From positions 65,675 through 129,674 of the forward strand of contig CAVPMW010000011.1 in the NCBI GenBank assembly GCA_963706515.1: 64,000 nucleotides of DNA. Direction: 5' to 3'. A program made the translations under genes and the position numbers. Below, piece after piece: positions 9,959 through 64,000 of this stretch (its first letter is position 1; each line of letters begins with the position of its first letter). Under the pieces are notes generated by a model. The model was not told the origin of the DNA, made no database searches, and worked only from the letters and a program-made list of their open reading frames with translations. The stretch is from an uncultured Chloroflexia bacterium. Its GTDB lineage: Bacteria > Chloroflexota > Anaerolineae > Anaerolineales > UBA4823.

Positions 9959-11377
9959 ATGGCAGATGAAGCAGGTCATGTGCTGGTGGTCGATGACAAC
10001 CGCATGAACCGGCTCAAGCTGTCGATAAGCCTGGAGCAGCAAGGTCACACGGTTTCCCTGGCTGAAGATGGTCAGCAGGCTTTAGAACTGCTGGCAAACG
10101 AGCCATTCGACGTAGTCCTTCTCGACCTGATCATGCCTGGGATGGATGGCTTCCAGGTCCTGGAAAAGATCAAGGGTGACCCAGGCTTGCGCGATATCCC
10201 GGTTATCGTGATCTCCGCCGTGGATGAATTGGACAGCGTCGTGCGTTGCATCGAAATGGGGGCAGAAGATTACCTGCCCAAGTCCTACGACCCAGTTCTC
10301 CTGCGGGCAAGGCTTGGCTCCAGCCTGCAAAAGAAAAAGCTGCGGGATCTCGAAAAGATGTATTTGCAGCAAGAAGTCACGCTGCGCCAGAACGAGAAGC
10401 TGGCGACCCTGGGAAAGCTCAGCGCCGGAATGGCCCATGAGTTGAATAACCCGGCAGCCGCTGCTCAGCGCGGCGCTGGCCGGCTTCAGGTCACTTTTGC
10501 GCAGCTGCAGCAAACCTATCTGCGCTTGTGTAAGTTAAATCTGACTGAAACCCAGTTGAGCATGCTCGCTGATTTGGATCAGCTTGCCCAGACCAGAGCC
10601 CGGAAGCCGGTCTACCTGGATGCGCTCGCGCGCAGCGATTATGAGAGTGAGCTGGAGGCCTGGCTGGATGAACAAGGCTTGGATAGCGCCTGGGAGATTG
10701 CACCGACCCTGGTGAGCCTGGGCTACCAACAGGCTGAGCTTGAGCGGCTGATGGTCGGTCTAAGCCCTGAGCAATTTGTCGCCACAATCGAGTGGCTGAA
10801 CGCCAGCGCCACTATTTACAGCCTCGCCGAAGAAGTCAGCATGGGCGCCGGGCATATCTCGGAGATCGTCAGAGCCCTCAAGACCTATACCTACATGGAC
10901 CAGGCGCCGATCCAGACTGTGGACATTCACGAAAGCCTGGATAATACGCTGATCATCCTGAGGAGCAAGCTCGCCTCCGGCGTCAGCGTGCGCCGCGACT
11001 TTGCTGCAGATTTACCGAAGATTGAAGCTTTTGGCAGCGAGCTCAATCAAGTCTGGACAAATATCATCGATAATGCGATCGACGCCATGCACGGTCAGGG
11101 TGAAATAGTTTTATCCACTCGCTATGCTTACCCCTGGGTCACTATTGAAATCGAGGACAACGGACCGGGGATTCCCGAATCTATCCTGCCGCACGTCTTT
11201 GACCCGTTCTTCACCACCAAACCGCCCGGCAAGGGGACCGGCTTGGGCTTGAATATCTCCCACAATATCATCGTGCAGAAGCACCATGGGAGGGTCAGCG
11301 TAAGCTCGCAGCCGGGGAAAACCCGCTTCGAGGTGCGCCTGCCTCTCCGCCTTACAGCCGAACAAGAGTTGTCGTAA
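9959..11377 (+). CDS. response-regulator receiver fused to histidine kinase (REC-HisKA-HATPase)
   Basis: Intact 472-aa ORF. It has a receiver ([12 protein letters not shown]...[11 protein letters not shown]...YLPK), the H-box [12 protein letters not shown] and the ATPase boxes [15 protein letters not shown] and GTGLGL. Confidence 0.9.
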
Positions 11378-11451
11378 GTATCTATCAGAAAATGGATGGG
11401 AGAATCGATTTTGTGGTGTGTGCGGCTTCGCCGCACACACCACAAAATCGA
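11375..11451 (+). repeat. intergenic repeat element ending in a perfect 21-bp stem / TTCG loop hairpin; probable terminator, REP-like
   Basis: taagtatctatcagaaaatggatg... is followed by cgattttgtggtgtgtgcggc TTCG gccgcacacaccacaaaatcg (11406-11451). It begins exactly at the TAA stop of the upstream gene. A second, decayed copy lies at 19844-19903. Confidence 0.8.
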
Positions 11452-11507
11452 AACCCCTCATCTTTTCGGACAGGTACTAAGTCTGAGATCGAAGGGGATT
11501 CGATAAA

Positions 11508-13163
11508 ATGGCGAAAGCAAACATCCTGGCAATTGACGATGATCGCAATGTGCTCAACGCAGTAGAGCGCGACCTGCGCCAGAAATACGGGCGCGATTAT
11601 CGCATCATCAAGGCGGAGGCGGGAGGAATAGCCCTGGAGGTGATCGCACAGCTCAAAGAGCGCAATGAGACGGTTGCGCTCTTCGTCGTAGACCAACGCA
11701 TGCCGGAGATGAACGGGGTGCAGTTCCTCGAGCAGGCGGTGCAGCTGTTCCCCGATGCCCGCAAAGTCTTGCTCACTGCCTACGCCGATACCGAAGCCGC
11801 GATCAGCGCCATCAACAAAGTTGGACTGGACTACTACCTGATGAAGCCCTGGGATCCTCCGGAGGAGCATTTTTATCCGGTCCTGGATGGCTTGATCGAA
11901 GAGTGGCATCGCAATGTGCGCCTGCCGTTCGAAGGCATTCGTGTGGTGGGCACTCTCTGGTCGCCCTTGTGCCATGACATCAAGGATTTCCTGGCGCGCA
12001 ACACAATTCCCTACCTGTGGCTGGATGTCGAACGCGATGAGGAAGCGCGCAGCCTGCTCCAATCCGCCTCAGGGGAGGAGCCGAAGATTCCAGCGGTGTT
12101 TTTCCCGGATGGCAGCCACTTATTCGCGCCGACCATCCAGCAGGTAGCGGAAAAGGCCGGGTTGCGCACCCGGGCAGAAATGCCGTTTTACGATGTCGTC
12201 ATCATCGGCGGCGGTCCGGCAGGGCTCTCCGCAGCTGTGTATGCCAGCGCTGATGGGCTCAAAGTGCTCTTGATCGAACGCCAGGCCCCCGGGGGGCAAG
12301 CCGGCAACAGTCCAAAGATCGAGAACTTCTTGGGCTTTCCCAGCGGGATTTCGGGAAGCGAGCTGACTCGCCGGGCAGTGACCCAGGCGCAGCGCTTTGG
12401 CGCTGAAATTTTGACGACCCAGACAATCAGCAGGGTCATTTCTGCTGGCAACACGAAAACGGTGACTTTTGCCGACGGCTCTGAAGTCTCAGCCAAGATC
12501 GTGCTCATCGCGACCGGGGCGTGGTTCCGCACTTTGGACCTTCCAGGCAGCGAGCGCTGGCAGGGCGCAGGGATTTATTATGGCGCAGCGCATACCGAAG
12601 CTGCCAATTACCGGGATCAAGACGTAATCGTCATCGGAGGGGCAAACTCGGCTGCGCAAGCGATGCTCTTCCTGAGCAAATACGCGCATAAGGTGACCGT
12701 GCTGATTCGCGGCTCGGACCCGGACTGGTCGCAATACCTGGACCAGGCTATTCGCAGCAACGAGAAGATCGAGCTGAGGTTCAATACCGAGCTGGTCGAG
12801 ATCCACGGTGAAGACACGATCCAGGAGGTCGTCATCCGGGACCGGAAGGACAATTCTCGCCAAAATCTGCCCGCCGCGGCCATTTTTGTGTTCATCGGAC
12901 AAAAACCGCAGAGCGATTTTGTGGCTGACCTGGTTTTGCGCACTCCGAGCGGTCATATCCTCACCGGGCTTGACCTGGTCCAGGATGGCAAACGCCCGCC
13001 GGGCTGGGATTTGAACCGCGATCCTTTGATGTTAGAGACGAGCGTTCCTGGGATCTTCGCCGCAGGCGATGTGCGCAATGGGACGAAACACGGCGTGGCA
13101 GCCGCCAGCGGAGATGGCGACGCTGCGGTATCCCTCTTCTGGCAGTATCTTTCGACGATCTAG
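11508..13163 (+). CDS. fused response regulator / glutaredoxin-like / thioredoxin-reductase-like FAD-dependent oxidoreductase
   Basis: Intact 551-aa ORF. It has a receiver (ILAIDDDRNV...VVDQRMPEMNG...MKP), a Grx-like segment (WSPLCHDIKDFLARNTIPYLWLDVERDEEA), an FAD GxGxxG motif (VVIIGGGPAGLSAA), an NAD(P) motif (VIVIGGANSAAQ) and a C-terminal GIFAAGDV. Confidence 0.9.
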   Translation: MAKANILAIDDDRNVLNAVERDLRQKYGRDYRIIKAEAGGIALEVIAQLKERNETVALFVVDQRMPEMNGVQFLEQAVQLFPDARKVLLTAYADTEAAISAINKVGLDYYLMKPWDPPEEHFYPVLDGLIEEWHRNVRLPFEGIRVVGTLWSPLCHDIKDFLARNTIPYLWLDVERDEEARSLLQSASGEEPKIPAVFFPDGSHLFAPTIQQVAEKAGLRTRAEMPFYDVVIIGGGPAGLSAAVYASADGLKVLLIERQAPGGQAGNSPKIENFLGFPSGISGSELTRRAVTQAQRFGAEILTTQTISRVISAGNTKTVTFADGSEVSAKIVLIATGAWFRTLDLPGSERWQGAGIYYGAAHTEAANYRDQDVIVIGGANSAAQAMLFLSKYAHKVTVLIRGSDPDWSQYLDQAIRSNEKIELRFNTELVEIHGEDTIQEVVIRDRKDNSRQNLPAAAIFVFIGQKPQSDFVADLVLRTPSGHILTGLDLVQDGKRPPGWDLNRDPLMLETSVPGIFAAGDVRNGTKHGVAAASGDGDAAVSLFWQYLSTI

Positions 13164-13185
13164 CACGCGCGACTGTACGGAAACT

Positions 13186-13215
13186 GTAGGGGGCGACTCA
13201 TGAGTCGCCCCCTAC
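13186..13215. terminator. bidirectional stem-loop terminator between convergent genes
   Basis: gtagggggcgact CATG agtcgccccctac, a 13-bp perfect stem, lies between the stop at 13163 (+) and the stop at 13217 (-). Confidence 0.7.
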
Positions 13216-13216
13216 C

Positions 13217-14634
13217 TCACCACACGCCTTGCGCCCTCAGTTCCTCCATCGCGGCTTTATGGATCTCGATCAGTTGGGTGATGTCCTCGTCGGTGTGCGC
13301 GGTGCTCATGAACCCGTGATTCGGCGCTACGTGCAGCCCGTTCTTGCGGTACAGCAGCCTCAAGCCAGGGCTGGCGAACCGGTCACCCTGGCGCACATCC
13401 CGGACGCTGTTGACCGGTCCACGCGAGGTGTGCATCCAAAACATGGAGCCAACGCCCGTTGCGATCGCCGGATAGTCCCCTTCCTGGGCGAACCGGTTGA
13501 TCTCGGTCCGAAAGCGGTCACCCATCGCGTTCAAGCGTGCATACAGTTGCGGTTCTTTGCTGAGCCGCCGCAAGACAGCGGTCCCGGCTGCAGCAACCAG
13601 TGGGTTGCCGTTGAATGTCCCTGCCATGAGGATAGACACCCGGCTCAACATCGTATTCCATCAGGCGCATCGCCTCGGCAGTTCCGCCCACCGCCCCAAA
13701 TGGAAGACCGCCTCCTGCGATCTTGCCGTAGGTACTCACCTCCGGTGTAACCCCGTAGAGCTCCTGAGCCCCGCCCGGCGCCAAACGGAAGCCGGTTATC
13801 ACTTCATCAAATATCAGGAAGGCGCCGATCTCGCGTGTGACTCTGCGCAGCTCGGATAGGAATTCCCTGTCCAGCTGGGATCGTGCCCGCCGCGCCCTGC
13901 ACGGGCTCGATAATTACGCCCGCCAGCCGGGATGCATAACGTCTGATCTTGTCGAACGCCGCCGGGTGGTTGAAGGGCAATACAATGGTGTCCTTCCATG
14001 CTCCTTCGGCAAGCCCAGGGCTCTCTGGGATTGCGGTTGGATCCTCGACTGGACCAAACAGGTCGGGAGTCGGGCTCGGCCGGCCGAAGCTGACTGCCAG
14101 CAGATCATGCGTTCCGTGATATCCCCCCTCGAATTTTGCAATCAGGGGTCGCCCCACCGTGGCTCGCGCCAGCCGCAGCGCGTACATGGTCGCCTCGGTC
14201 CCCGAGTTGCAGAAGGTCACCTTGTCCACGCCTGGCACCATGTCGCAAAACAGCTTCGCAAACGCATACTCATGCTCGTGGCATTGTCCGAATGAGGTCC
14301 CGCGCGGCAAAGCTTCCCTTAGCGCTGCTTCGACCTCCTCCGGTGCGTTCCCGAGGATCATGGTCGAGAAGCCGAGCATGCAGTCCAGGTATTCATTGTC
14401 ATCCGCGTCCCACATCCTGGCGCCTTTCGCCCGCTTAACCACCATGGGAAAAGGATCCGCCAGCCGGAACACGCTGCCTACACCCGCCGGCATGACCGTG
14501 CGGTTTTCTTGCCAGATCGATAGTGACTTTGGACTCTTTGCCATGATCTCGTCGCGGTACGTGTTCAGAATCCGTGCGATTCTTTCCCGGTCATCCATTG
14601 CATACCCTCCTGACAGCGATCGATCTTCCTTCAC
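13217..14634 (-). pseudogene. class III (GSA-aminomutase-like) PLP aminotransferase, at least 2 frameshifts
   Basis: Fragments 13807..14634, 13518..13802 and 13217..13651 join into one protein ([86 protein letters not shown]). An alternative start is ATG 14598, preceded by AGGAGG. Confidence 0.85.
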
Positions 14635-42282: not shown

Positions 42283-42444
42283 GCGTGAACTGAGCGATCT
42301 CGGGCGTGGTGCATGTTCACATACCAATCCCTCCTTGCGTATACCTTCAGCACTCTGACATTCGTCCACCAAGCGATTGAGGCCGGCGAAGATGCTCTAA
42401 AAGTTATACGCTCTGCAGAGAGGGTGGGCCGCATCTCCACGGTG
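42283..42444 (+). repeat. copy 1 of a roughly 150-160-bp direct repeat family whose right end resembles a reverse-strand tRNA 3' end
   Basis: A 93-nt block (gcgtgaactgagcgatctcgggcgtggtgcatgttcac...ccaccaagcg) differs at 4 positions (hand count) from 44396 onward. The tail aaagttatacgctctgcagagagggtgggccgcatctccacggtg is shared with copies 2 and 3. Confidence 0.85.
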
Positions 42445-42548
42445 GGTGTAATAGATGGAAAAAGCCTGTATCCTATCAAAGTTATTGATTGGTACAGGCT
42501 TTTTGATAGTCGCGCTCCATTCCATTTCTAAAAAATGGTTTATAGCGC

Positions 42549-42577
42549 TTTACGCTTAGCGCAATGCGTTATATAAT
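42549..42577 (+). promoter_or_regulatory. candidate sigma70-type promoter of higBA (TTTACG-N17-TATAAT) with overlapping inverted repeat
   Basis: tttacg at 42549-42554 and tataat at 42572-42577. The agcgct...agcgc inverted repeat spans the -35 element. The ATG at 42590 implies a very short leader. Confidence 0.4.
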
Positions 42578-42589
42578 ATATCGGAACAC

Positions 42590-42871
42590 ATGATCAAATC
42601 TTTCAAGAGCAAGGAAACTGCCCGAATCTTTGCCCGTTTGCGCTCGACCCGGTTGCCAGGAGACATCCAACAGGTCAGCTACCGTAAGCTACGTATGCTT
42701 AACAATGCCGTCACATTGGACGATCTTCGAGTTCCTCCAGCAAACCGGCTGGAGAAGCTCAGCGGTGACCGGGCAGGGCAGTACAGCATCCGGATCAACG
42801 ATCAATGGCGGATCTGCTTTGAATGGATCGATGGTGATGCCTATAACGTAGAAATCGTGGATTATCATTAG
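42590..42871 (+). CDS. higB: HigB-type toxin (plasmid maintenance system killer, RelE/ParE superfamily)
   Basis: MIKSFKSKETARIF...LEKLSGDRAGQYSIRINDQWRICFEWIDGDAYNVEIVDYH is the canonical HigB pattern. Confidence 0.9.
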   Translation: MIKSFKSKETARIFARLRSTRLPGDIQQVSYRKLRMLNNAVTLDDLRVPPANRLEKLSGDRAGQYSIRINDQWRICFEWIDGDAYNVEIVDYH

Positions 42872-42882
42872 GAGCTGGTAAT

Positions 42883-43185
42883 ATGAACGAGAAGCTAAAT
42901 CCTGTACATCCTGGGGAGGTACTGTTAGAAGAATTCCTCAAGCCAATGGGTTTGAGCCAGAACCGGTTGTCGTTAGAGATCGGGGTACACCCCCGGCGGA
43001 TCAATGAGATCGTGCTCGGCAAGCGGCGCATCACTGCCGATACTGCCCTGCGCCTGGCGCGCTATTTCGGCACATCACCCCAGTTCTGGATGGGATTGCA
43101 GAACGATTATGATCTAGATGTGGCTGCCGATACCTTGGGAGACAGGCTGGATATCGAGGTGCGGCCTATGGCGGTATCTGGGTAA
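42883..43185 (+). CDS. higA: HigA-type antitoxin (XRE HTH)
   Basis: HPGEVLLEEFLKPMGLSQNRLSLEIGVHPRRINEIVLGKRRITADTALRLARYFGTSPQFWMGLQ. The gene starts 11 nt after higB. Confidence 0.9.
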   Translation: MNEKLNPVHPGEVLLEEFLKPMGLSQNRLSLEIGVHPRRINEIVLGKRRITADTALRLARYFGTSPQFWMGLQNDYDLDVAADTLGDRLDIEVRPMAVSG

Positions 43186-43230
43186 TTCTAACGATACGGG
43201 GTTCTTGGTAGGTTCGTCTCAGGAAAACCT

Positions 43231-43258
43231 GCGGAGAGGGTGGGATTCGAACCCACGC
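43231..43258 (-). other. isolated tRNA 3'-end fragment (T-arm plus acceptor 3' strand), no 5' half
   Basis: The reverse strand reads GTGGG TTCGAAT CCCAC CCTCTCC G. The expected GGAGAGG 5' acceptor strand, D-arm and anticodon arm are absent in the 90 nt upstream. Confidence 0.65.
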
Positions 43259-43536
43259 TGGTTACGTATAAGCTGTCCTACCAGAGAGTGCTGCGTGCTG
43301 ATTGCTGCGTGGATCCTTCCCGCCAGAAAGCTCGATACATCACCTCGAAATTAACGGCAAGCCTGTCAAACAGGTGAGGAGAGAGCTTATGCGTACAGCG
43401 ATGGCGATCTTGCCGCCTTGGCGGTTCGAAATGTTCTACACCGCAAAGACGCAAAGCTCGCCAAGCTATAAGTTTCAAAAGTCAGCTTAGCGATCTTGGC
43501 GCCTTAGCGGTTAAATTTATATAGAATGGATCTTTA

Positions 43537-44049
43537 TTATTTCGCCCTTAATTCTCTCGATTGCACGAAAATGCCGGCTGCTATGAGCACGAGGAAGAGG
43601 AGAGACGCAACGGCGGCGCCCAAGGTGAACATCCCGTTCACCTTTCCTGCGATGGCATTCGCGCCAGCCCAGGAGGTGAGCAGGATGAGGCCCCAGTCAA
43701 ACAGGAAGATCATCAACAAAAAGCCCACTACAGCCCCGATCAGCGCCATCAGCATCCAGCTCCAATTGATGCCAAACATGCTGAGGAATAGCGGCAATCC
43801 CACTGCTCCCGCCAGCGCCCCAACGATGTAGCCGACGATCTTGATAAACTTGGTCGCCAGCCAGGCGAAGATCGCGCCGATAATGATTGCCACGATCAAC
43901 CCCAGCCACCCGCCTCCGAACACGTTATCGAACAGGTTGAAGATGAACAAAAATGCCACCATCGCGGCTGCCAGCCAGAAAAACCGGCGCCCTGCGAAAA
44001 GCAGGATCAGTCCTGCTACGACCGAAAGAATTAACGAGATCCATTCCAT
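43537..44049 (-). CDS. multi-pass membrane protein (DUF4203/TM7S3-like), 170 aa
   Basis: Intact ORF with a GGAGG RBS and five or six hydrophobic helices. The function is unknown. Confidence 0.65.
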   Translation of the reverse strand: MEWISLILSVVAGLILLFAGRRFFWLAAAMVAFLFIFNLFDNVFGGGWLGLIVAIIIGAIFAWLATKFIKIVGYIVGALAGAVGLPLFLSMFGINWSWMLMALIGAVVGFLLMIFLFDWGLILLTSWAGANAIAGKVNGMFTLGAAVASLLFLVLIAAGIFVQSRELRAK

Positions 44050-44395
44050 GTTTGCCTCCGTATTGTGAGACGTGTAACGAGTCTAGAAAGTGACCGTCCA
44101 AAATGTATAACCCCAATCGGGTCTGGAAGTTCTTCAAATCATTCACCGCGGAGAAGACATTTACCGCAAAGCTTTGCGGCGGTCTCTGCTTCGGACCGGA
44201 ACTCGATCGGTTTGCCGCACCTACCCCAATCCTACAAAATAACTGTGACATAGAGGTAGATATCGGATATATGAGCACCGGTGTCGAAATCGTGCTGCAG
44301 ATTTCTGACAAGACAAGCACTTGTCTTGTAACATTTTGACTATCGCCGAAGAGTATATACCGTGATGGATAAGCCATTAAAAGAGAGATCGCCTT

Positions 44396-44540
44396 GCGTG
44401 AAATGAGCGATCTCGGGCGTGGTGCATGTTCACATGCCAATCCCGCCTTGCGTATACCTTCAGCACTCTGACAGTCGTCCACCAAGCGCTGCTGTCGGCG
44501 ATGACGCACTGAAAGTTATACGCGCTGTGGAGAGGGTAGG
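44396..44540 (+). repeat. copy 2 of the direct repeat family (see 42283)
   Basis: gcgtgaaatgagcgatctcgggcgtggtgcatgttcacatgcc...aaagttatacgcgctgtggagagggtaggt, in the same orientation as copy 1. Confidence 0.85.
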
Positions 44541-50916: not shown

Positions 50917-51975
50917 TTACACTGGACTGGCAGTTCCGCGAACTGGCAGTTCCGCTCGTTGCCAGTCCCCTTCCAGCGGCATCTGCGTTAGTCTCGTGCT
51001 GAATACCAGTCCAAGGCGCGTAAAGGCGCGCAGGGTGTTCCACCGGCTCGGTCGGCCCACTCCCTCGTCCATCTCGACCGGCATCACGCCGGGATACCGG
51101 GTCTCGAGCAGCCACCGCCCGTCGCCGTCACGCTTCGCTGCGACCAGCTCGATCGCCTCTGCCACCCGCTCGTCGGGCGTGACGCCGGCGCTGCGCAGGT
51201 ACTCGAGCCCCCGCAGCACGTCGTAGTGCCACCAGGTTGGGAAGGCGAAGCGCGTCCACACCGCGCCATCCTTGCGGTCTCGCTCGATCACCTCGCCGGT
51301 CGATCGCCGCCGGAAGAGCCGGCGCTCGAGGAGGTACTCTTGCCCCCGGAGACGGGCCTCGGTCACCTCCGGTCTGCCTCCGCTCGCTCGTTCGTGCTCG
51401 AGCAGAGCCTCCAGCACGCAGATCGTGGTATTGAACGACGACCGCCTCGAGCCGTTCTCCGCCTCGCAGTTCCAGCCGCCGTCGCGCAGCTGCTCGCCCA
51501 GCAGCCGGTCGACGAGGCCGCGGACATCCACTCCGAAGTAGGCGCCCGCCGTCGCCACCTGCCCGTTGATGCATGGCTCCACCTCGCCGGCGAAGAAGGG
51601 GTTGTTGGCGCACTCCTGCGGGCCCGAACCCTGCCACGTCACGTGGTCGCGGACGAGACCCACCGCATGCCGTGCCTCCGCGCTCGCCGGATCGAGCCCC
51701 AGGTGGCGCAGCAGCCACAGGACGTGCATCGTGGAGTTCCACCCGCGGTTCCAAGCCGCACCCGCCCAGCTTCCGTCCGCCCCCTGCAGCGCGAGCAGCC
51801 GCGCTCCCCAGCCCTCGGTCGCCACCCTTGCCCGCTCGGCCGCGATTTCATCCGCGGGCGCATCGGTCAGGTCTTGCATCACCTGCCAGCGGATCGAAGG
51901 GTCAGAATCAAGCAGCCAGCGTATGACCGGACTCTGTGGCTGCAGGGCTTTCTGTTTGGCTGGTTGGGTCGCCAT
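50917..51975 (-). CDS. prenyltransferase / squalene-cyclase-like alpha-alpha toroid repeat protein
   Basis: ATG 51975 has AAGGAGG 8 nt upstream. Repeated DGSW/DGGW/DGRW motifs (QGADGSWAG, LRDGGWNCE, RDGDGRWLLE) are present. The gene is very GC-rich compared with its neighbours. Confidence 0.6.
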   Translation of the reverse strand: MATQPAKQKALQPQSPVIRWLLDSDPSIRWQVMQDLTDAPADEIAAERARVATEGWGARLLALQGADGSWAGAAWNRGWNSTMHVLWLLRHLGLDPASAEARHAVGLVRDHVTWQGSGPQECANNPFFAGEVEPCINGQVATAGAYFGVDVRGLVDRLLGEQLRDGGWNCEAENGSRRSSFNTTICVLEALLEHERASGGRPEVTEARLRGQEYLLERRLFRRRSTGEVIERDRKDGAVWTRFAFPTWWHYDVLRGLEYLRSAGVTPDERVAEAIELVAAKRDGDGRWLLETRYPGVMPVEMDEGVGRPSRWNTLRAFTRLGLVFSTRLTQMPLEGDWQRAELPVRGTASPV

Positions 51976-52065
51976 CTGCTGGTTCCTCCTTACTTCGGCA
52001 GGTTCCATTCATCAGGTGCTTGATAACCAGGGGGACGATCTCTGCCAAATTTTAGACCATCTGCA

Positions 52066-55529: not shown

Positions 55530-55942
55530 CTATTTTTCCTCTTGTCCTGTTTGAACATAAACTGATCACAGGAACCTACCACCGATAATTATTGGCTAAT
55601 AAAAAGACTGTTACTATTATCCCAAAACACCAAGATAAAGTCATGTGCTGAATGTCACCCAGTCCTGATAGTTGTGATAGGCGATTAGCAAATACGAAAA
55701 GGATGGCTTGGCACAAGCAATATCTGATGCTCAGATTACTTTTCCGGGTTTCAAATGGTCCATTCGTTGTCTTCCGCCCTTGGAATACTCATCCGCATGC
55801 TCCTGGCGCTCATCCTGATTGCTTGTTTGGTTATATTCGCTTTTGTGGGGTACCGAAGGCTCTCAACCCATGCAGCTGGCCGGCGCAAATGGCATGACCT
55901 ACTGGCAGTTCATGCGGGAGCGAATTGGCGCCATTCGCGAGC

Positions 55943-56004
55943 TGCCGGCAAAGATGCTCTGAAAGTTATACGCTCAGCGGAGAGGTGGGTTCCATACCCA
56001 CGGT
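55943..56004 (+). repeat. copy 3 (tail part only) of the repeat family, at the left edge of the low-GC island
   Basis: gccggcaaagatgctctgaaagttatacgctcagcggagaggtgggttccatacccacggtg aligns with 42383-42444. The GTGGGT-TCCAT-ACCCAC hairpin mimics a T-arm. Confidence 0.75.
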
Positions 56005-56171
56005 GAGTAAAGAACCCCTAGTCGCTGAAGGCCGAAAATGTTGCTGATTTCGCAACATCTGAAAAAGGCGCAACCGGGGAGGATTTTTCACCTCTCTCGG
56101 TTCCGCTGATATTACATCTGTATCTACTCATAAGCTCGTGCATGTTTCGTAGAACAGCTTGGCTGCTGCTG

Positions 56172-56303
56172 TCATCTGTTTGTACCAGTCAGCACTTCAC
56201 TATCGGCAAGTTGGGGCTGTGACCCGCGTTGGCGAAGGCGTTTGCCTTTGAGCCATTCATCTACCAGACAGTACACGCTGATCAGATAGGTGGTAATATC
56301 CAT
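56172..56303 (-). mobile_element. N-terminal remnant (43 codons) of a DDE transposase (IS982-like / IS4-IS5 superfamily)
   Basis: MDITTYLISVYCLVDEWLKGKRLRQRGSQPQLADSEVLTGTNR*. The VYCLVDDxL...RLRQRGxxPxLxDSEVLT motif is typical of this transposase N-terminus. No catalytic domain follows. Confidence 0.6.
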
Positions 56304-56614
56304 GCGAAGACCTCTGTTCTCGAGTGTTAGCTTGGCCGCTACACTTGTATCGGTGGTCTTCTTATATTGTCAAGCTCCTAGAAAAACTTGCACATCGGGT
56401 TAATTAGGATCGAGAATTGTGTAATATATTGATACTGCAAATAATTGACTTCTGGACGTAATGGTGGCCGATACGCCTATTGATTGCCTCAGACGCCCAA
56501 AAGCTGGGTTTTAGTCCTGACACAGCGGCAATCTCCATCCGCTTGTCAAGCTCTTCAATGTTAAGGAGTTGATCGGAAATTTTGAGTTATGGATAACTAC
56601 AATATCCTCTTTCC

Positions 56615-56665
56615 TTGACAATCCTTGAATTTAGTATATACTACACGCTTAGTAGTATATACTAC
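56615..56665 (+). promoter_or_regulatory. promoter TTGACA-N16-TATACT with two palindromic operators (TAGTATATACTA; GTAGTATATACTAC) 21 bp apart
   Basis: ttgaca at 56615-56620 and tatact at 56637-56642. Operator 1 is at 56632-56643 and operator 2 at 56652-56665. The core GTATATAC fits the GntR/HutC GTnTAnAC consensus. Confidence 0.7.
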
Positions 56666-56823
56666 TTTTGTTACTTATCAATTTCAATAAACCAACTCCA
56701 TCTTGGGAGGAAATACTTGTTTCCTGATTGTTTGTTCAAGAACCTCACTCAACGATACCAACCAGTCTGAAGCTCTATAACCCCAGCTAACTAACCTCAT
56801 CAAACGTAACAGCAGAGTTTTCA

Positions 56824-57877
56824 ATGAAATCATTCAATGTTGTTTTCACTGATAAGGAAAAGGTCGAGATCATTGAAGAACCTGTCAGTCTTCCTGGGCC
56901 AGATGAAGTTTTATGCAGGGCGGAAAAATCCCTCCTCAGCATAGGCACCGAAACACTCATGTTGAGAGGTGTGGCCGATGAAGATACCAACTGGTTTGAG
57001 TACATGAATTATCCAACCTATACCGGTGATGGAATGGCGGCTACCATTACGGCTGTAGGTAAGGATATTCGTGGTTTTAGGGAAGGTGACCGGGTTGCAG
57101 TCGAAGCGAACCACAAGCAGTATTTCACCTTCAAACCTAACTCACAAGAAATACACCTTCTTCCTGACCACGTTAGTTTTGAAGAAGCATCCATCCTGAC
57201 ACTATCCTTGACGGCGCAATTGGGGGTCAGACGCGCAGAGCTGAAACTTGGTGAATCAGTCGGCGTTGTCGGTGTAGGAATTGTCGGGCAATTAGTGGTG
57301 CAGTACCTGAAAGCATCAGGGGCACGTCGAATTGTCGTCATTGATACCATTCAAAAACGGTTGGATACAGCTAAAGCTCATGGAGCGACGCACATTTTGC
57401 CCATGGATGTGAAAGCTGCATTGGAATCAGTCCGACGAATTGACTGATGCCAAGATGCTGGATGTAGTAATCGACGTTACCGGGTCGCCTTCTGTGTTAG
57501 GACCTGCCACACGGCTTCTCCATCCGTTCGGTCGTGCTATTCTTCTCGGTGATACAACAACGCCTTCGAAACAATCAGTAGGCAGCAGGATAGTGGCGAA
57601 CTCTATCGCCATCCTCGGCTCTCATTCATTTAATCATCCTCGTCACTATTCTGTTTACAGTCCGTGGGACAACAGTGAAATGGCAAGCTTATATTTCGAT
57701 TATCTTAAATTGGGGGTGATGTCAGTCAATGGACTGATAACGCACCGCTATTCGCCGATGGATGCTCCAAACATATATCAAGGATTATTATCTGACCGCT
57801 CATCACAGATTGGGATCATATTCGAATGGAATTTAATTGCGGAAGCAAAAGCCCATCCGGAACGGTTCGCTCTATAA
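56824..57877 (+). pseudogene. zinc-type (MDR) alcohol dehydrogenase-like oxidoreductase, one frameshift near 57440
   Basis: ORFs 56824..57447 and 57440..57877 are colinear. The Rossmann motif is VGVVGVGIVGQLVVQYLKASGARRIVVID, followed by LDVVIDVTGSP. Confidence 0.8.
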
Positions 57878-57888
57878 ATAGGAGCCTG

Positions 57889-59316
57889 ATGATGCAAATA
57901 AAAACATGGGGAACATCCCAGGTACTAAATCGATCCGAGATCGAAGAAATATATGGCAAGGCTTTGAGAGTTTTGAACGAAGTCGGGGTCAGGATAGAAA
58001 ACAAGTGGATGATTGATATGCTGGTGGCAAATGGCGCTGAGGTCAAAGGACCGTTTCTGGTTGCATTCCCTGAACACCTGATCGACGCAATGGTCAAAAC
58101 TGCGGTTCCATTCGATTGGGAGGGAGTTCCGGAATTATCCTTTGTAGCTGGGGCAAACCCCCAGTATTACATGGCTGCTGGCACTGACCAGGTTCGTGAG
58201 AATACGCTGGCAAGTATTGAACGCCTTACAATATTAGCTGACCGTTTAGAACACATTTCCCGGATCCACTTGATGGGAGCAGCTTCAGATGTCAACCCAG
58301 AGCTGACTCCACTCTACGCAAGAATTATAGGATGGAAATATGTAAATAACTCTGAATTCGATTGCCATGAAATCTGGCATGATGACACGATCGATTATGT
58401 ACTAGAGATGGTCGATGTATATAAGGCGGACAGCGGAGAAACGGATGATGGTAATCTACTAGATGTAGTCGTCTATATGATCTCACCGTTAAGTCTTAAA
58501 GCGATGGAAGCGGATCGATTTGAAAAGTGCCATAAAAAAGGATTTAATGTCAAAGTAGGTTCATTGTGCTCTGCAGGAGGAACAGCTCCCATTACTTTAG
58601 CTGGATCACTGGTGCAGAACCTGGCTGAGATGTTGTTCATGAATTTATTGGATCGAGTTTTTAACAATAAAAATAGGATGGTGATCGAGAATCGCATCGG
58701 TGTGATGGATATGAGGTACGCGATGTTTCCATATGGAAGACCCGAAATTGGGATTACCAATTTGGCCATGGGCAATATCGCCAGGCATCTTAAAGCAGAA
58801 TATATCTCCAATTCTTTTTCAGCTGACGCAAAACTGCCAAGCAGTGAAGCAGGGATGCAAAAATCCGTTTCTGCTATAACAGGAATTCTCGCCGGTTCGA
58901 CCACTTTCTACACTCTGGGACTGCTCTCGATTGACGAAATCATTTCAGAAGAGCAATTGGTGATTGACAATGAATTTGTGGGCTTATTAAAACGGATGGC
59001 AAGAGGATTTGAACTAAGCAATGAAACGATGGCACTCGATGTAATCAAAGAAGTTGGCCCTGGAGGCTTGTTTACTGCAACCGACCATACACGGGTAAAT
59101 TATCGCACTGAACACTGGCAGCCGGATATCTTTTCACGCGAAATGTATGGCAGTTGGGTTGCCAAAGGGAAAATGATAGATCGAGACCTGGCTGCTAAGC
59201 GGGTGCAAGAGCTTTTAGCAAAGGAACAACCAATCGGCATTTCAGAAGATACAGAAATGCGGTTGTTGTCAATTGTCGAGAGAGCGAAAAGCAAATTGGA
59301 AAGGAGAAACACTTAA
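57889..59316 (+). CDS. MttB-superfamily (trimethylamine methyltransferase-like) protein without in-frame UAG (non-Pyl type)
   Basis: ATG 57889 follows AGGAG. The N-terminus is LNRSEIEEIYGKALRVLNEVGVRIENKWMIDMLVANGAEV, with ...GSLCSAGGTAPITLAGSLVQ in the middle and C-terminal VIKEVGPGGLFTATDHTRVNYRTEHWQPDIFSREMYGSWVAKG. The 475-codon frame is uninterrupted. Confidence 0.8.
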   Translation: MMQIKTWGTSQVLNRSEIEEIYGKALRVLNEVGVRIENKWMIDMLVANGAEVKGPFLVAFPEHLIDAMVKTAVPFDWEGVPELSFVAGANPQYYMAAGTDQVRENTLASIERLTILADRLEHISRIHLMGAASDVNPELTPLYARIIGWKYVNNSEFDCHEIWHDDTIDYVLEMVDVYKADSGETDDGNLLDVVVYMISPLSLKAMEADRFEKCHKKGFNVKVGSLCSAGGTAPITLAGSLVQNLAEMLFMNLLDRVFNNKNRMVIENRIGVMDMRYAMFPYGRPEIGITNLAMGNIARHLKAEYISNSFSADAKLPSSEAGMQKSVSAITGILAGSTTFYTLGLLSIDEIISEEQLVIDNEFVGLLKRMARGFELSNETMALDVIKEVGPGGLFTATDHTRVNYRTEHWQPDIFSREMYGSWVAKGKMIDRDLAAKRVQELLAKEQPIGISEDTEMRLLSIVERAKSKLERRNT

Positions 59317-60249
59317 TGAAGTACGGAATGCATTCTTGCGGACTTAAGAGCTATTCTTTATTAGAAGCTTTGAAAAAAGCAGGGGAATTTGGTTACGACG
59401 GTCTTGAAATTGATATATTTCCTCAGATAAACGATAGATTGGGCTGGGAAAAATATCGTAATGATCTGACCAACGCTGTTCCAGAAATCGCCACCGTTAA
59501 GCAAAATGCCGGAATTGAAATCAGCTCGCTTTGTCTGGGTGTTTTGTGGTTTGTAAACATTGCCGGCGATAACGAAGTAGAAAGCGACCTTGGAGTCAGC
59601 ATCATCAATGATTGTATTGAAATCGGTTCCAGGCTTGGCGCTAGCTGCTTGCTGCTGCCCATAGGCCAACCGGAAGAAGCCTCCTCGGCAAAGGCAAGGG
59701 ATAATCTATATCATTCGATCTTAAAGTGTCTCGATAGAGCTGATAAGCACAAAATCGTGTTGGCAGTTGAAAATGTCGTACAGAGAGTATTGTGGAATAG
59801 CAATGATCTGATTGAGCTGGTCGACCGCGTGGATTCACCCTGGTGCAGGGTATATTACGATGTAGGCAACCCATATTTCGTGGAGTATCAACCCGGCTGA
59901 AGAGATCTTATCGCTAAATAAAAGGATTTTCCAGTTCCATATAAAGGACATGCAAGAAGTTGTAGTTCCGCCTGTCGAAGCGAATGGCGGAAATAAAACT
60001 GAACCAGATGATAATGAAATTAAGTTCAGAGGAGACACAGCAAATTGGAAAGGGAAAAAGGATGCCAGCATTGGGACCGGGATTGTGAACTGGCCTGAAA
60101 TTATTACTGCAATTCATGATATTGGATTTGACGGTTATTTGGTTACTGAAATCCAACAGGATTTAATGCAGCCAGATTTGATCGCAAAAGAAAATTTCAC
60201 CACGCTAAAAGCGCTGGGGGAGAAAATCAAACTGAGAGGAGCACGATAA
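59316..60249 (+). pseudogene. xylose isomerase-like TIM-barrel sugar-phosphate isomerase/epimerase, one frameshift near 59895
   Basis: ORFs 59316..59900 (GYDGLEI, LAVENV, YYDVGN) and 59950..60249 (FHIKD...GFDGYLVTEI) are colinear. Confidence 0.8.
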
Positions 60250-61298
60250 TGGGAACAAGATTATTAATTACAAATCCCCGGGAAATCGGATACGGGGAAT
60301 ATGAAGACCGGATCCTGAAAAGCAATGAGGTCAGGCTGAAGACGATCTATTCCGGTATCAGCATTGGAACAGAGCTGACTGTTTATCGCGGGCTCAATCC
60401 TTATATGCTCAAAAAATGGGACAGCGAAAAGAAGCTGTTCGTAAAGGGAGAAGGGACCTCACTGAGTTACCCTACCGAATCAGGGTATGAGGCTGTCGGG
60501 CAGGTCTCAGAAATAGGTTCAGACGTTACCAAAGTAAGGGAAGGGGATTTTGTTTACGGTGGTGAATGGTATGGATGGACTCATAAAACCACGCACATTC
60601 TTACTGAAGATGCCGCCTTAAGACAAAGAATGCCAGCGCATGTGAATCCGAAACTGGGGATATTTGTCCCGCTACTGCAAACTTCATTCAATGGAATTCT
60701 AGATTCGCAGGTAAACCTTGGCGAAACCGCAGTTGTCTTTGGCGCCGGTATTGTCGGTCAGCTGGCGCTGCAATTTTTAAAACTATCCGGCGCGGAAGTG
60801 GTTGTCGTCGATTTGATCGACGAACGGCTGGAAATTGCCAAACAGCTCGGCGCGGATGAAGTCATCAACGGAATAAATATAAATGCTGGCGAATATATCA
60901 AAAGTAAAACTGGTGGGCGAGGCGCTGACGTATGCATCGAAGCGGCTGGAAATGACCTGGCTTTACACGAAGCGATCCGATGCAGCGCGTACTCAGGGAA
61001 AGTGATTTCTCTGGGCTTTAACCCTAACCCTGCGAGCCACCTAAATCTTGGCGAAGAATTCCATCACAACCGGATCAGTATTATATGCTCCCAGATCGGT
61101 GGCGTAAACCCGGCTTTGCTGAACCGGTGGGATGTGTACCGGGTGGAGGATGCCGTCGTAAAAATGCTTTACGAAGGAAAATTAAACCTGGAACCTCTCA
61201 TCACGCATGAGTTTGACTTTAGAAACGGGCAGGAAGCTTATAATTTAGCGGATAAAAACCCACAAGCTGCCTTGCAAATAATATTAAGATATTCGTAA
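60249..61298 (+). CDS. zinc-type (MDR) alcohol dehydrogenase-like oxidoreductase
   Basis: Intact 349-aa ORF. The Rossmann motif is VVFGAGIVGQLALQFLKLSGAEVVVVD, followed by ADVCIEAAGN. Confidence 0.8.
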   Translation: MGTRLLITNPREIGYGEYEDRILKSNEVRLKTIYSGISIGTELTVYRGLNPYMLKKWDSEKKLFVKGEGTSLSYPTESGYEAVGQVSEIGSDVTKVREGDFVYGGEWYGWTHKTTHILTEDAALRQRMPAHVNPKLGIFVPLLQTSFNGILDSQVNLGETAVVFGAGIVGQLALQFLKLSGAEVVVVDLIDERLEIAKQLGADEVINGININAGEYIKSKTGGRGADVCIEAAGNDLALHEAIRCSAYSGKVISLGFNPNPASHLNLGEEFHHNRISIICSQIGGVNPALLNRWDVYRVEDAVVKMLYEGKLNLEPLITHEFDFRNGQEAYNLADKNPQAALQIILRYS

Positions 61299-61318
61299 AA
61301 TTTTCTGTGACTATACAG

Positions 61319-61349
61319 AAGGCGTCACAACGAATTGTTGTGACGCCTT
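61319..61349. terminator. bidirectional stem-loop terminator between convergent operons
   Basis: aaggcgtcacaac GAAT tgttgtgacgcctt has a 13-bp stem, followed by aacttttt. Confidence 0.75.
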
Positions 61350-61369
61350 AACTTTTTAAACACCAGGAC

Positions 61370-62434
61370 CTATAAACGAACAGACGCCCCAATAGAAGAA
61401 GATTCGTAAATGGCATCGATGATTTTCATCACTTGAATTGCATCGTCGGCGGGGCAGATACACGAGATATTCTGTAGAATACAATCTACGAAATGATTGA
61501 TCTCTGTGTCCAGACATTTACCCCAATTTAAGGTGTCATCATCAAGGATGGGTTTTAGGTCGACCAGATAATCATTTTGCTCATTGAAGACCTCGAACCC
61601 GGGCTCAACTCTGGCGCCAGCCTTTTCCCCAAAAACGTCCATATATACAACCTCTTCTTTGGCTTTCATATGCATATCGAAACTCGACTCAAGAAATAAA
61701 GTGGCACCGTTATTAAATTTGACCATTGCAGTTGCCAGATCTTCAGTGTCAAATTTTCCCATCTCATAATCCGCGGTTTTGTACCAGTCGATCCCTTTAA
61801 GATTGGATCGTTTGCCAAACTTGTTGAAGGTGCTGGCAAATACATATTCTGGCTCGGGGTTGCCCATTAAATAAAGAGCTATGTCGATCATATGCACCCC
61901 CAGGTCAATCAGCGGTCCGCCTCCAGATAATTCCTTCGTTGCGAACCAGCCGCCTGGATTCCCGCATCTGCGGATGTAGCCGGTTTTAATATAATAAATC
62001 TCACCGAACGACCCTGCTTGCGAGAATTCTTTCAAGTACTGTATTTTCTCAGAGAATCTACCATTAAAACCGAACATCAGCAGTTTCCCATTCTTTTTAG
62101 CAGTATCAACCATCCGAATAGCATCTTCCGCATTCATGCCCGGTGGTTTTTCGCATAGGACGTGCTTCCCTGCATCCAGGGCTGCAATCGTAAATTCGGA
62201 GTGAGTAAAATTCGGAGTTACGATGTTTACCGCGTCGATATCCTCCCTGAGGATTAATTTCCGATAGTCATCATAAACGGTTTTGATCCCAAAATCTCTA
62301 GCTTTCTTTTCAGCATTATGTATATTCTTATCACATAATGCGATAACTTCTACCGCAGGATTGGAGGCATAGGCTTTGATATGATTGACCGCCATGCCCC
62401 CTGCACCGATAACTCCGACTCTCACTTTTTTCAT
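61370..62434 (-). CDS. Gfo/Idh/MocA-family NAD(P)-dependent oxidoreductase
   Basis: The N-terminus is MKKVRVGVIGAGGMAVNH, followed by the EKP motif (VLCEKPPG). The 354-aa ORF is intact. Confidence 0.9.
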   Translation of the reverse strand: MKKVRVGVIGAGGMAVNHIKAYASNPAVEVIALCDKNIHNAEKKARDFGIKTVYDDYRKLILREDIDAVNIVTPNFTHSEFTIAALDAGKHVLCEKPPGMNAEDAIRMVDTAKKNGKLLMFGFNGRFSEKIQYLKEFSQAGSFGEIYYIKTGYIRRCGNPGGWFATKELSGGGPLIDLGVHMIDIALYLMGNPEPEYVFASTFNKFGKRSNLKGIDWYKTADYEMGKFDTEDLATAMVKFNNGATLFLESSFDMHMKAKEEVVYMDVFGEKAGARVEPGFEVFNEQNDYLVDLKPILDDDTLNWGKCLDTEINHFVDCILQNISCICPADDAIQVMKIIDAIYESSSIGASVRL

Positions 62435-62463
62435 TTGAAAGCGTCCTTCCGGATAGCCTGTTG

Positions 62464-63808
62464 TTATTCTTGCCTGAATTTAGGCAGGTAAGCGCTCTGG
62501 GCAAGGATCAATTCGTCTGCCAGCCGCACAGCTATATCAGGCGATTGAACTGCGCCATCCAGGATTAATGCCTGAATGAATTTCTCCCGATTTCCTTCCA
62601 TTGCGGCTTCTGTGACGACCTGGGTCCAGGCAAACCGTGCTGCTACAATGCCGGCTGCTGCAGTTGGCAAGCTGGATTGCTGGATTGCATGGATTCCAAG
62701 CCCATCGGTCAAAGCAGGCGTTTCCACAATCATGCCCTCTGGAAGGTTAGGCGCCTGACCGGTGTTGGGTAAATTGGCGAAAAATACTTTCTTCTCGTTT
62801 CTCAGGATCGCTTGAATGATCTCGACGACCTGCTCTTGCTCACCACTCTGTTTATCCAAATAAGCAGCGTCATGCATATCGTCATAGATCTTGTCACCGA
62901 ACCTGATCGTTTCTTCAAAACTGAATTCATCAATCCCCAAGGTTTTTCCATAATAACTGCCGTCCCGGAATAATTGAGGGAAGAACTCTGTGACATGCCG
63001 GTCCATGGGAGCAGGGAAGGCGTCGAACCAATCCAGGCATTGCCAGCTGAATGGGTGGTCGAAAGAGGACTCAAATGGTTTACCGCAATGAGGAATGGAA
63101 GCCATCCCTGTTTTTGCCTGGTCGACTGCTAAACGAGTGTTTTCGACGACTCGGTGGGCGTGATCTTTGAGCGTCGGTTTTGCATCTCTTCCATTGGCAT
63201 AAATTTCGGAGAACCACGTCAGGTGGTTAATCCCGGCTGCGTTGAGTGATATCTCTCCGGCTTCGACCTTCAGCGTTTTGGACAGATATTGTATTGCTTC
63301 CCAGGTACCTATGCACAATCCTATAACTGATGCTCCGGTTACTTTAGTTAACAGCATAGCAGATGGGAGCCATTGGATTTGCATAGTTAAAAAATAATGA
63401 ATCAGGAGCAAGATCTATGACATCCTGAGCGATATCTACCATCGCGGGGATCATGCGTAATGCCCGAGAAGTACCGCCTGGACCAACCGAATCGCCGACC
63501 GGCATGAAAATGCCATATTTGCGCGGGATAAAGACATCCTGTTCCCAGGCACGCCTGCCTCCGACGCCGATGGTCGTAATAACTGCGGTTGCATCTCTGA
63601 GCAGTTTGCGGCGCTCCATTCCCGCGCTCAATTTAATTGAGCTATTACCGGAATGGATCATTTTTTTCGATAATTTTTTGGCAGTATCGAGTGCAATCGG
63701 ATCGATGTCGACCAAAGCAAGCTCCGCCTTGATCCCTGCTTTGATGAGATCAGAAACTACCCCGATCGTAAACATTGCACTTCCGGCTCCAATCAAGACA
63801 ATTTTCAT
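62464..63808 (-). pseudogene. glycoside hydrolase family 4 (NAD+/Mn2+-dependent glycosidase), one frameshift near 63350-63410
   Basis: ORF 63344..63808 ([13 protein letters not shown]...[11 protein letters not shown]) is colinear with ORF 62464..63411 (GLCIGTWEAIQYL...AAGINHLTWF). Confidence 0.8.
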
Positions 63809-63904
63809 GGCTTCGATTCCTTATATTTCCTCATATCGACATATTGAGGGCGTCGGCCTTTAGTAGGAATGCATTGTTGAAGCGTCTATAAAAATCAGAC
63901 AGCC

Positions 63905-63955
63905 TTGACAATCTCATTATTTAGTATATACTACTAGTTATGTAGTATATACTAC
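63905..63955 (+). promoter_or_regulatory. second copy of the TTGACA-N16-TATACT promoter with the same paired palindromic operators
   Basis: ttgaca at 63905-63910 and tatact at 63927-63932. tagtatatacta is at 63922-63933 and gtagtatatactac at 63942-63955. The spacing is identical to 56615-56665. Confidence 0.7.
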
Positions 63956-63965
63956 CTGGGTTTAT

Positions 63966-64000
63966 ATGTCAACCAATACCCCGTCGAAATCTCCTTGGAG
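63966..64000 (+). CDS. start of an unidentified gene running off the right edge (MSTNTPSKSPW...)
   Basis: ATG at 63966 lies about 30 nt downstream of the predicted -10 element. Only 11 codons are visible. Confidence 0.3.
   Translation, partial: MSTNTPSKSPW

Follow-up and report, generated by a model that had tools for sequence, protein, structure and literature searches.

A low-GC metabolic island in an Anaerolineales genome, most likely acquired by horizontal transfer

Genomic (metabolic or fitness) islands are a long-established class of bacterial DNA, as defined by Hacker, Kaper and Dobrindt. Here we describe a low-GC block that begins near the end of a 64,000-nucleotide stretch of contig C11 of an uncultured Chloroflexia bacterium (C11:65,675-129,674; this whole stretch is called the window) and continues past it. 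Like the classical islands, the block deviates in composition over 10-20 kb, carries a self-contained accessory function, is patchy in distribution and occurs in varied contexts, with an insertion sequence (IS) remnant and tRNA-derived sequence at one edge. It differs from them in that it has no integrase, intact tRNA target, att-type direct repeats or sharp right border, and the tRNA-Ser and IS features at its edge mark a later rearrangement junction, not an insertion scar. By composition, distribution and context the block is a genomic (metabolic) island, without the mobility features of the tRNA-integrated type. We consider it probable that the region was acquired horizontally as a metabolic island of about 16.5 kb and that its left junction is secondary. 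The island is real but of an ordinary kind, and horizontal transfer is its most likely origin.

The gene content of the island can be compared with three described systems. In loci for glycosides that depend on glycoside hydrolase family 4 (GH4), such as those of AglA and MelA, NAD+/Mn2+-dependent enzymes are encoded with an ATP-binding cassette (ABC) transporter of the CUT1 type. The island has two GH4 genes with PF02056 and PF11975, and also a solute-binding protein and two permeases without a dedicated ATPase, a PfkB kinase and a Gfo/Idh/MocA dehydrogenase, as in such loci. However, its GH4 proteins score far below the AglA and alpha-galactosidase cut-offs, and it has an extra MttB-superfamily gene, two medium-chain dehydrogenase/reductase (MDR) genes and a GH127 gene. 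We know of no description of a GH4 locus combined with MttB, two MDR dehydrogenases and GH127. The second system is the non-pyrrolysine MttB superfamily (MtgB, MtpB, MtcB and MtyB), whose members, like the island gene, have a full-length PF06253 domain and no in-frame amber codon. The island gene differs in that no corrinoid-protein gene is found among the scanned open reading frames (ORFs), and it is tightly linked to genes for a TIM-barrel epimerase and an MDR dehydrogenase. The third comprises the GntR/HutC repressor regulons, including TreR of Bacillus subtilis, NagR/DasR and FarR. These share with the island a regulator that joins a winged-helix GntR domain to a UTRA effector domain, palindromes with a GT..TA..AC-type core over promoters, and a regulator gene placed within the transporter operon it controls. 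The best NCBIfam similarities of the island regulator are to HutC, PhnF and TreR-type repressors. Because all of these matches lie below the equivalog cut-offs, it is not an orthologue of any characterised regulator. In contrast to the known regulons, each promoter here has a pair of operators spaced 21 nt apart, and this arrangement is present at two promoters. From these likenesses we infer that the locus is a GntR/HutC-controlled unit for the uptake and catabolism of a glycoside or oligosaccharide.

The assembly under study (G000) is a metagenome-assembled genome (MAG) of 4.42 Mb in 32 contigs, estimated to be 85% complete and 6% contaminated. A conserved gene of the left flank has hits named as Chloroflexi, Anaerolineales or Anaerolineae MAGs, and the host is accordingly an Anaerolineales-type Chloroflexota. 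Junctions and frame changes were judged from assembled contigs. GC is 0.567 over window positions 1-55,529 and 0.452 over 56,007-64,000, and the change-point at about 55,550 is the strongest 3-kb left/right contrast (0.131). A drop near 55.6 kb had been noticed in a sequence-only reading of the window, and it is borne out here (56.7% to 45.2%). The genome's 8-kb windows (n = 4,183) have a mean GC of 0.564 with a standard deviation of 0.036; the island part, at 0.454, has z = -3.1, and only 0.31% of these windows are equally low. Elsewhere in the genome, GC below 48% is reached in two segments only (C2:110-123k and C8:95-124k). GC at third codon positions (GC3) is 0.44-0.53 in the island ORFs, against a genome median of 0.66 and a 5th percentile of 0.52, and 0.67-0.82 in the left-flank genes. 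To the right, contig GC stays at 0.43-0.49 up to C11:134k and then rises slowly to about 0.55 by 151k. We place the block from window position 56,401 to about C11:138.5k, which is about 16.5 kb and reaches about 8.9 kb past the window end. The right end was set at about C11:138.5k because of composition and collinearity with a sister contig; the right border was expected beyond the window and is found there, but it has no sharp edge.

Two observations concern composition elsewhere in the genome. The ORFs of C8:95-124k and C2:110-123k resemble glycosyltransferase, ABC-exporter and sugar-modifying genes of a surface-polysaccharide type, an assignment made solely from their N-terminal sequences. 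By GC-normalised tetranucleotide signature, the most atypical stretches are C10:376-432k, C18:1-12k and C2:384-396k, with 63-67% GC and r = 0.33-0.64 against a mean of 0.90; these high-GC stretches deviate in tetranucleotides far more than the low-GC island does.

The distribution of the block was studied with C11:123.5-136.4k (12.9 kb) as the query within the family, and C11:136.4-138.5k, which holds GH127, was placed by composition and collinearity instead. Among 136 other species of the family, 43 gave patchy GH4 and short hits, the best of them at 215 bits, and the MttB-TIM-MDR core had no hit in any. When left-flank DNA of the same length was used instead, 133 of the 136 gave hits, at up to 88% identity. 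Family homologues resume from C11:139k, and C11:142.4-152k is collinear with G002:C4:172-182k at 64-73%. This comparison covers the GTDB sample, in which there are no other members of the same genus. A protein search of the species-genome contigs with MttB gave no confirmed relative; the closest MttB homologues, 80-81% identical, are on the metagenomic contigs L014 and L015, and the nearest named one is in an Anaerolineae MAG. Further copies of this same assembly did not appear when the MttB protein was looked up by exact match.

The block is found in three contexts. On L014, a JGI metagenome contig, the genes run MttB-TIM-MDR-Gfo(-)-SBP-permease-permease-GntR-GH4-PfkB (SBP, solute-binding protein) in the same order as here, with 52-85% amino acid identity, and both operator modules are present. 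This cluster is about 46% GC and adjoins genes of 60-65% GC, and this high-GC flank has no match in G000 and merely weak collinear matches in four family genomes. The junction is repeated in L052, a second sample that was assembled independently. A prophage nature of the L014 flank was considered and set aside, since a DnaB-like ATPase and an M23 peptidase, the only PHROGs hits, are insufficient for it. The second context is L015, a Logan contig of uniformly 43-50% GC that carries the three-gene core only, at 78% nucleotide identity and with no operators. The DNA on the right of this contig is collinear (68-70%) with that of a genome from a different family of the order. The third is the flank of the type seen on contig C30, which adjoins the island in two sister strains of G000. 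These are represented by ENA long-read contigs (L054 and L055), found via cluster look-ups, whose island proteins are at least 90% identical to those of G000.

Because the distribution is patchy, the contexts are unrelated, a native-looking low-GC contig carries homologues and GC3 has not ameliorated, we regard the acquisition as well supported. In other metagenomes the island copies are 67-78% identical. Copies that are about 23% apart in nucleotide sequence all have 45-46% GC within hosts of 57-63% GC, and separate imports from donors of about 46% GC explain this uniformity more simply than long residence. The donor was probably an organism of about 46% GC and another member of the same order (Anaerolineales-like Chloroflexota), not of a distant phylum, since the nearest named homologue is in an Anaerolineae MAG and a genome from this order is collinear with the flanks of L015. 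The island would have entered before the split from the sister strains, which are 97-98% identical. These findings document gene flow within the poorly studied Anaerolineales well, and they present one operator-controlled sugar module in three states: native-looking in low-GC DNA, imported into two high-GC hosts, and rearranged by an IS in one strain.

The left border of the block in this window comprises the following features.

55,530-55,750, no strand: AT-rich intergenic stretch after the last high-GC gene (GC 0.389); it contains the GC change-point, and the last left-flank ORF ends at 55,529
55,943-56,004, forward strand: third copy of the tail of a tRNA-Ser(CGA) locus, with about 33 nt of downstream flank and about 30 nt of the tRNA 3' end (acceptor and T arm), on the opposite strand
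56,188-56,402, reverse strand: probable IS982-family remnant of 215 bp, with the outer end and the first ~38 transposase codons, truncated on the inner side
56,401-56,402, no strand: strain-specific breakpoint and first island base common to the sister assemblies; L054 and L055 align from C11 122,075 onward at 97.1-97.5%

The third repeat copy has about 65 nt in common with copies at window 42,382-42,447 and 44,491-44,535, which are 82-83% identical and bracket a HigBA cassette. It aligns to an intact tRNA-Ser(CGA) locus in the family genome G005:C3 (17,426-17,600), covering the downstream flank and overlapping the 3' end. All three copies (window 42,283-44,540 and 55,943-56,004) derive from the downstream flank and 3' end of tRNA-Ser(CGA). 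The tRNA-like character seen in the sequence-only reading is made specific by this alignment. We rejected a reading of the tail as a conserved peptide motif (G-x-DALKVIR), because the nucleotide similarity crosses a frame-breaking indel and aligns to the tRNA-Ser locus of G005. Neither ARAGORN nor Rfam gives a tRNA in the repeat tail, and an intact tRNA-Ser(CGA) was not found in the G000 assembly; a tRNA-Ser(cga) call by ARAGORN on C2 was disregarded, as it sits in apparent coding sequence. The ancestral tRNA-Ser site could not be reconstructed from G005 and G006, whose flanks map to other G000 contigs, one of them to the start of C30. Beside these, the G005 gene neighbouring tRNA-Ser(CGA) maps to the first 500 bp of C30, which points to an assembly gap as the place of the true locus. 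An orphaned perfect 29-nt tRNA 3' end lies at window 43,229-43,257.

The IS remnant is 79% identical in nucleotide sequence to C25:12,199-12,413 of G000. The C25 element has three frame fragments that are collinear on NF033520 (IS982 transposase) at profile positions 1-45, 47-136 and 179-241, each below the 130-bit cut-off. The remnant translates to MDITTYLISVYCLVDEWLKGKRLRQRGSQPQLADSEVL..., and a 43-codon ORF at 56,172-56,303, which had been read earlier as the N-terminus of an IS982-like transposase, belongs to the 215-bp stretch; that assignment is probably right, by way of the C25 element. The remnant itself has no direct family hit and its catalytic domain is absent, and for the IS fragments Pfam gave nothing and the IS982 matches came from NCBIfam. 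Mobility-related sequence at the island is limited to this remnant at its edge.

Across most of the island the sisters match G000 at 97.4-98.6% DNA identity; the figure is 93.8% in the first 2.5 kb and 98.1-98.8% in the right flank, where their sequence is collinear except for a 2.4-kb indel with aldehyde:ferredoxin oxidoreductase and ferredoxin genes. Since the island and its right junction are present in two independent sister assemblies, both predate the split from these strains. The IS982 remnant has its outer end exactly at the breakpoint, window 56,401. To the left of this point the sisters have a spacer of about 350 bp and then a region with genes for an extracytoplasmic function (ECF) sigma factor, DUF4367 and cytochrome c, which is 94-95% identical to G000 C30:96,952-99,516 and has 59-63% GC. 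Past that point C30 of G000 continues into tandem MDR and DUF4386 genes. The tRNA-Ser(CGA) tail lies 400 bp left of the island, and the sister strains are without this junction. Because the sisters start at 56,401 with another left flank, the tRNA-Ser tail and the IS982 remnant mark a later rearrangement and not an integration scar. The earlier conclusion of horizontal acquisition stands, on stronger grounds, but its use of the tRNA-like tail and transposase remnant as the integration border does not. Since two new junctions (on C11 and C30) fall at one site, a single real rearrangement is favoured, and a double misassembly is much less likely. We suggest that, once an IS982 copy had landed at the left end of the island, the DNA was rearranged so that the island came to lie beside the tRNA-Ser-derived repeat locus and 215 bp of the IS were left; an inversion is the simplest form of such a change. 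We infer this order of events from the contig comparison. Elements at an island edge are not necessarily integration scars. On the C30 side, the segment C30:99,536-104,000, which directly follows the breakpoint shared with the sister strains, has 43-50% GC. It encodes two DUF4386 proteins and, in tandem, three MDR proteins that resemble quinone oxidoreductases; the repeats inside it are 65% identical, and there are paralogues on C10:318-319k.

Several observations weigh against acquisition. With base composition removed, the tetranucleotide signature of the island correlates with the genome at r = 0.87-0.88, in the 10th-15th percentile, and is no outlier; of the compositional deviation that had been looked for, GC and GC3 show it and GC-normalised tetranucleotides are ordinary. 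The right border is diffuse, GC going from 0.46 to 0.55 across 15 kb, and the family-conserved right flank itself has a GC3 of merely 0.53-0.67. The phylogenetic foreignness is only at the level of family or order because the nearest named MttB homologue is in the host's class; of the expectation of a foreign affinity and broken synteny, absence from the 136 family species is borne out and a distant affinity is not. ARAGORN found no tRNA in the window or on C11, nor in L014, L015, L039 or L040, which leaves no intact tRNA target. A search for att-like flanking direct repeats found the operator modules only, with none matching at the right end, and the nearest integrase (PF00589) on C11 is at C11:3.5-4.0k, at least 117 kb off. 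No clean empty site was seen among the available relatives, which include no same-genus genome without the island. The cyclase-like and DUF4185-like flank genes are 21 kb apart in G000 and 2.5 kb apart in the family genome G051, where their relative orientation differs. The G051 locus is C28:22,184-26,779 (L049:8,184-12,779), and the cyclase-like gene of G000 lies at window 50,917-52,008; as an empty-site candidate the locus is suggestive only.

The explanation that fares best beside acquisition is that the cluster is native, an old vertical accessory locus that kept its low GC through its own mutational or selective regime and was lost from most relatives. It would fit the near-genomic tetranucleotide signature, the further low-GC functional clusters of polysaccharide type on C8 and C2, the gradual right border, the mostly Anaerolineae-like homologues, and the equal similarity of island and flank to the sister strains. 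However, it needs loss in essentially all of the 136 sampled family species. The L014/L052 lineage has the cluster in another neighbourhood with the same sharp GC step, and copies about 23% apart that stay at 45-46% GC in 57-63% GC hosts fit separate recent imports, from donors such as L015, better. We therefore consider a native origin unlikely and favour horizontal acquisition.

The acquired block appears to bring its own control system, which is built from two promoter-operator modules and a hairpin.

56,615-56,665, forward strand: promoter-operator module 1, TTGACA-16-TATACT with two TAGTATATACTA palindromes 21 nt apart
61,319-61,349, no strand: hairpin with a 14-bp stem, bidirectional and terminator-like, between the convergent operons
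63,905-63,972, no strand: promoter-operator module 2 with divergent promoters; palindromes at 63,922-63,933 and 63,943-63,954

The operator palindrome TAGTATATACTA occurs four times, against 0.03 expected, and all occurrences sit in two 60-nt modules that are 78% alike. Module 1 is kept upstream of the MttB gene in the orthologous cluster of L014, and module 2 is kept in L014 as well. Both promoters of module 2 match 11 of 12 consensus positions, each with its -10 within a palindrome. Between 55.5 and 64.0 kb, the three highest-ranking sigma-70-like matches are the rightward promoters of both modules and the leftward one of module 2, and in each of the three the -10 box (TATACT) is inside the palindrome. 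The only regulator of the block is a HutC-type GntR/UTRA protein, encoded past the window end at L006:12,470-13,204 (PF00392, E = 1.6e-16; PF07702, UTRA, E = 5.4e-39). The duplicated operator system and the convergent layout, with operons that meet at the hairpin, are as first described.

We propose the following circuit. The HutC-type GntR repressor would bind the GTAGTATATACTAC palindromes, which are arranged in pairs and overlap the -10 boxes in both modules. Module 1 would drive MDR1, the MttB-like gene, the TIM epimerase and MDR2. Module 2 would drive, rightward, the ABC solute-binding protein, two permeases, the repressor itself, a GH4, the PfkB kinase and GH127 and, leftward, the other GH4 and Gfo/Idh/MocA. 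With two operators per promoter, the repressor may silence both the transporter/GH4/kinase operon and the dehydrogenase/MttB/epimerase operon, and its release would come from an inducer that is presumably the sugar or its derivative. The imported glycoside would be cleaved by GH4 and GH127, its product converted by the Gfo, MDR and TIM epimerase enzymes, and phosphorylation would be due to PfkB.

The genes of the island within the window are as follows.

56,824-57,877, forward strand: MDR (zinc-type) dehydrogenase 1 in two frames (56,824-57,447 and 57,440-57,877), with the ADH_N and ADH_zinc_N hits divided between two ORFs
57,826-59,316, forward strand: MttB-superfamily protein without an in-frame stop (PF06253, E = 3e-55); the start is probably at 57,889-57,892
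59,316-60,249, forward strand: xylose-isomerase-like TIM-barrel sugar epimerase/isomerase (AP_endonuc_2), with PF01261 divided between two ORFs and a frame change near 59,887-59,897
60,249-61,298, forward strand: MDR dehydrogenase 2, intact, assigned by Pfam and 85% identical to the L014 orthologue
61,370-62,434, reverse strand: Gfo/Idh/MocA sugar dehydrogenase, intact (PF01408, PF22725, PF02894), 79% identical to the L014 orthologue
62,464-63,808, reverse strand: GH4 glycosidase 1, with Glyco_hydro_4 and Glyco_hydro_4C on two overlapping ORFs and a frame change near 63,344-63,411

Pfam confirms all the genes named in the sequence-only reading (two MDR, MttB-like, TIM barrel, Gfo/Idh/MocA and GH4). 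The set is not self-contained within the window, as had been proposed there: past the window end lie the solute-binding protein, two permeases, the GntR/UTRA regulator, the second GH4, PfkB, GH127 and a DUF4185-like gene. The latter, at C11:138.6-139.6k, has a homologue in G051 (69-84% amino acid identity). Beyond it are URO-D-like, Gfo, 2-oxoacid dehydrogenase E1/E2, two GntR/FCD, ADH and transketolase genes. MDR dehydrogenase 1 is an intact ORF of 341 amino acids in L054 and L055 and is absent from L014 and L015. The TIM-barrel protein has an intact orthologue of 308 amino acids in L014 (71-74% identical) and is weakly similar to ketose and L-ribulose-5-P 3-epimerases in NCBIfam profiles. 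The MttB-like protein is 81% identical to its L014 orthologue, and its frame is open and without a TAG (amber/pyrrolysine) codon. Against TIGR02369 it scores 244.7 bits, below the equivalog cut-off of 525. No B12-binding domain was found among the ORFs scanned over C11:121-150k, a scan of ORFs of at least 100 amino acids, and at the right edge there is only a URO-D-like gene. GH4 gene 1 is intact in L054, at 447 amino acids. In the L014 lineage it is missing: about 130 nt beyond Gfo still align (L014:11,429-11,644 against window 62,434-63,955), with the operator module next. The alignment makes this loss look like a deletion.

Seven genes of the region are split, namely MDR1, the TIM barrel, both GH4, PfkB, GH127 and the DUF4185-like gene, each with one frame change relative to intact orthologues. 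They could be true pseudogenes of a decaying relic whose pathway no longer functions in this strain. Such a relic would account for the single frame change in each gene and for that of GH4 gene 1 at least, which is outside any long homopolymer. However, rpoB, which is essential and single-copy (C10:176,689-180,491), is split far more heavily: it runs through three frames and changes frame six times or more within 3.8 kb. The IS element on C25 is split too, and the splits in the sisters are not shared (TIM in both, GH4-1 in L055 only, E2 in L056), which is the pattern of random consensus indels. Elsewhere rpoC, on C18, is one open frame of 1,424 amino acids. Since rpoB is also split and the sisters have their splits at other places, we read the seven splits as indel errors and not as pseudogenes. 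They are most likely long-read consensus indels, and a decaying relic is improbable. G000 has locally dense indel errors, and split genes anywhere in it need read support. Split genes in this long-read MAG are no evidence of decay.

An assembly artefact, in which C11 is chimeric and the block comes from another organism in the sample or is misjoined on its left, is very unlikely: the MAG does have 6% estimated contamination, its assembly is error-prone (as rpoB shows) and the left junction, at an IS982 repeat-family fragment, is unlike both sister assemblies, but the join of the island to the right flank is reproduced in two independent assemblies, both ends of C11 are family-typical DNA, an IS copy truncated to 215 bp, at just 79% identity to the other one, is unlikely to mislead an assembler, the reciprocal C30 junction also differs from the sisters so that one rearrangement suffices where otherwise two independent misjoins would be needed, and even with a wrong left join the sister contigs place the island beside core DNA of 59-63% GC.

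For the acquired island, the MttB-TIM-MDR trio (MttB-superfamily, AP_endonuc_2 TIM-barrel and MDR genes, window 57,826-61,298) is the only part from which new biochemistry might emerge. The three genes co-occur in L014, L015, L039, L041 and L052-L055, often beside a sugar ABC transporter and glycosidases, on contigs of 36-53% GC. On L040, an Anaerolineae contig of 62% GC, a distant MttB homologue is found with a sugar transporter and without the TIM barrel or MDR. No corrinoid-protein gene was seen near the trio, and nothing relevant was found in the literature on MttB in Anaerolineae. As a tentative and rather doubtful proposal, the core may encode an undescribed sugar-linked role of a non-pyrrolysine MttB clade, and the island may spread among the Anaerolineales as a ready-made, self-regulated module. 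One such role may be the removal or transfer of methyl groups on a methylated or quaternary-amine-bearing glycoside.

Neither the leaders nor any other part of the island matched an Rfam family. A stretch of about 160-200 nt lies immediately beyond the window (L006:8,701-8,916, about window 64,027-64,242), with operator module 2 on one side and the gene for the solute-binding protein on the other. It has a possible ORF of 71 codons, and five further genomes of the family have DNA matching it at 72-76%. L014 has a comparable small ORF in the corresponding position. The stretch has no Rfam match and may encode a conserved leader peptide or an RNA that regulates in cis. In the right flank, the sister strain contig L056 has 2.4 kb (11,147-13,565) between the URO-D-like and Gfo genes, where G000 has about 200 bp (C11:140,754-140,953). 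This insert holds an aldehyde:ferredoxin oxidoreductase, a 4Fe-4S ferredoxin and an ORF of 139 amino acids.

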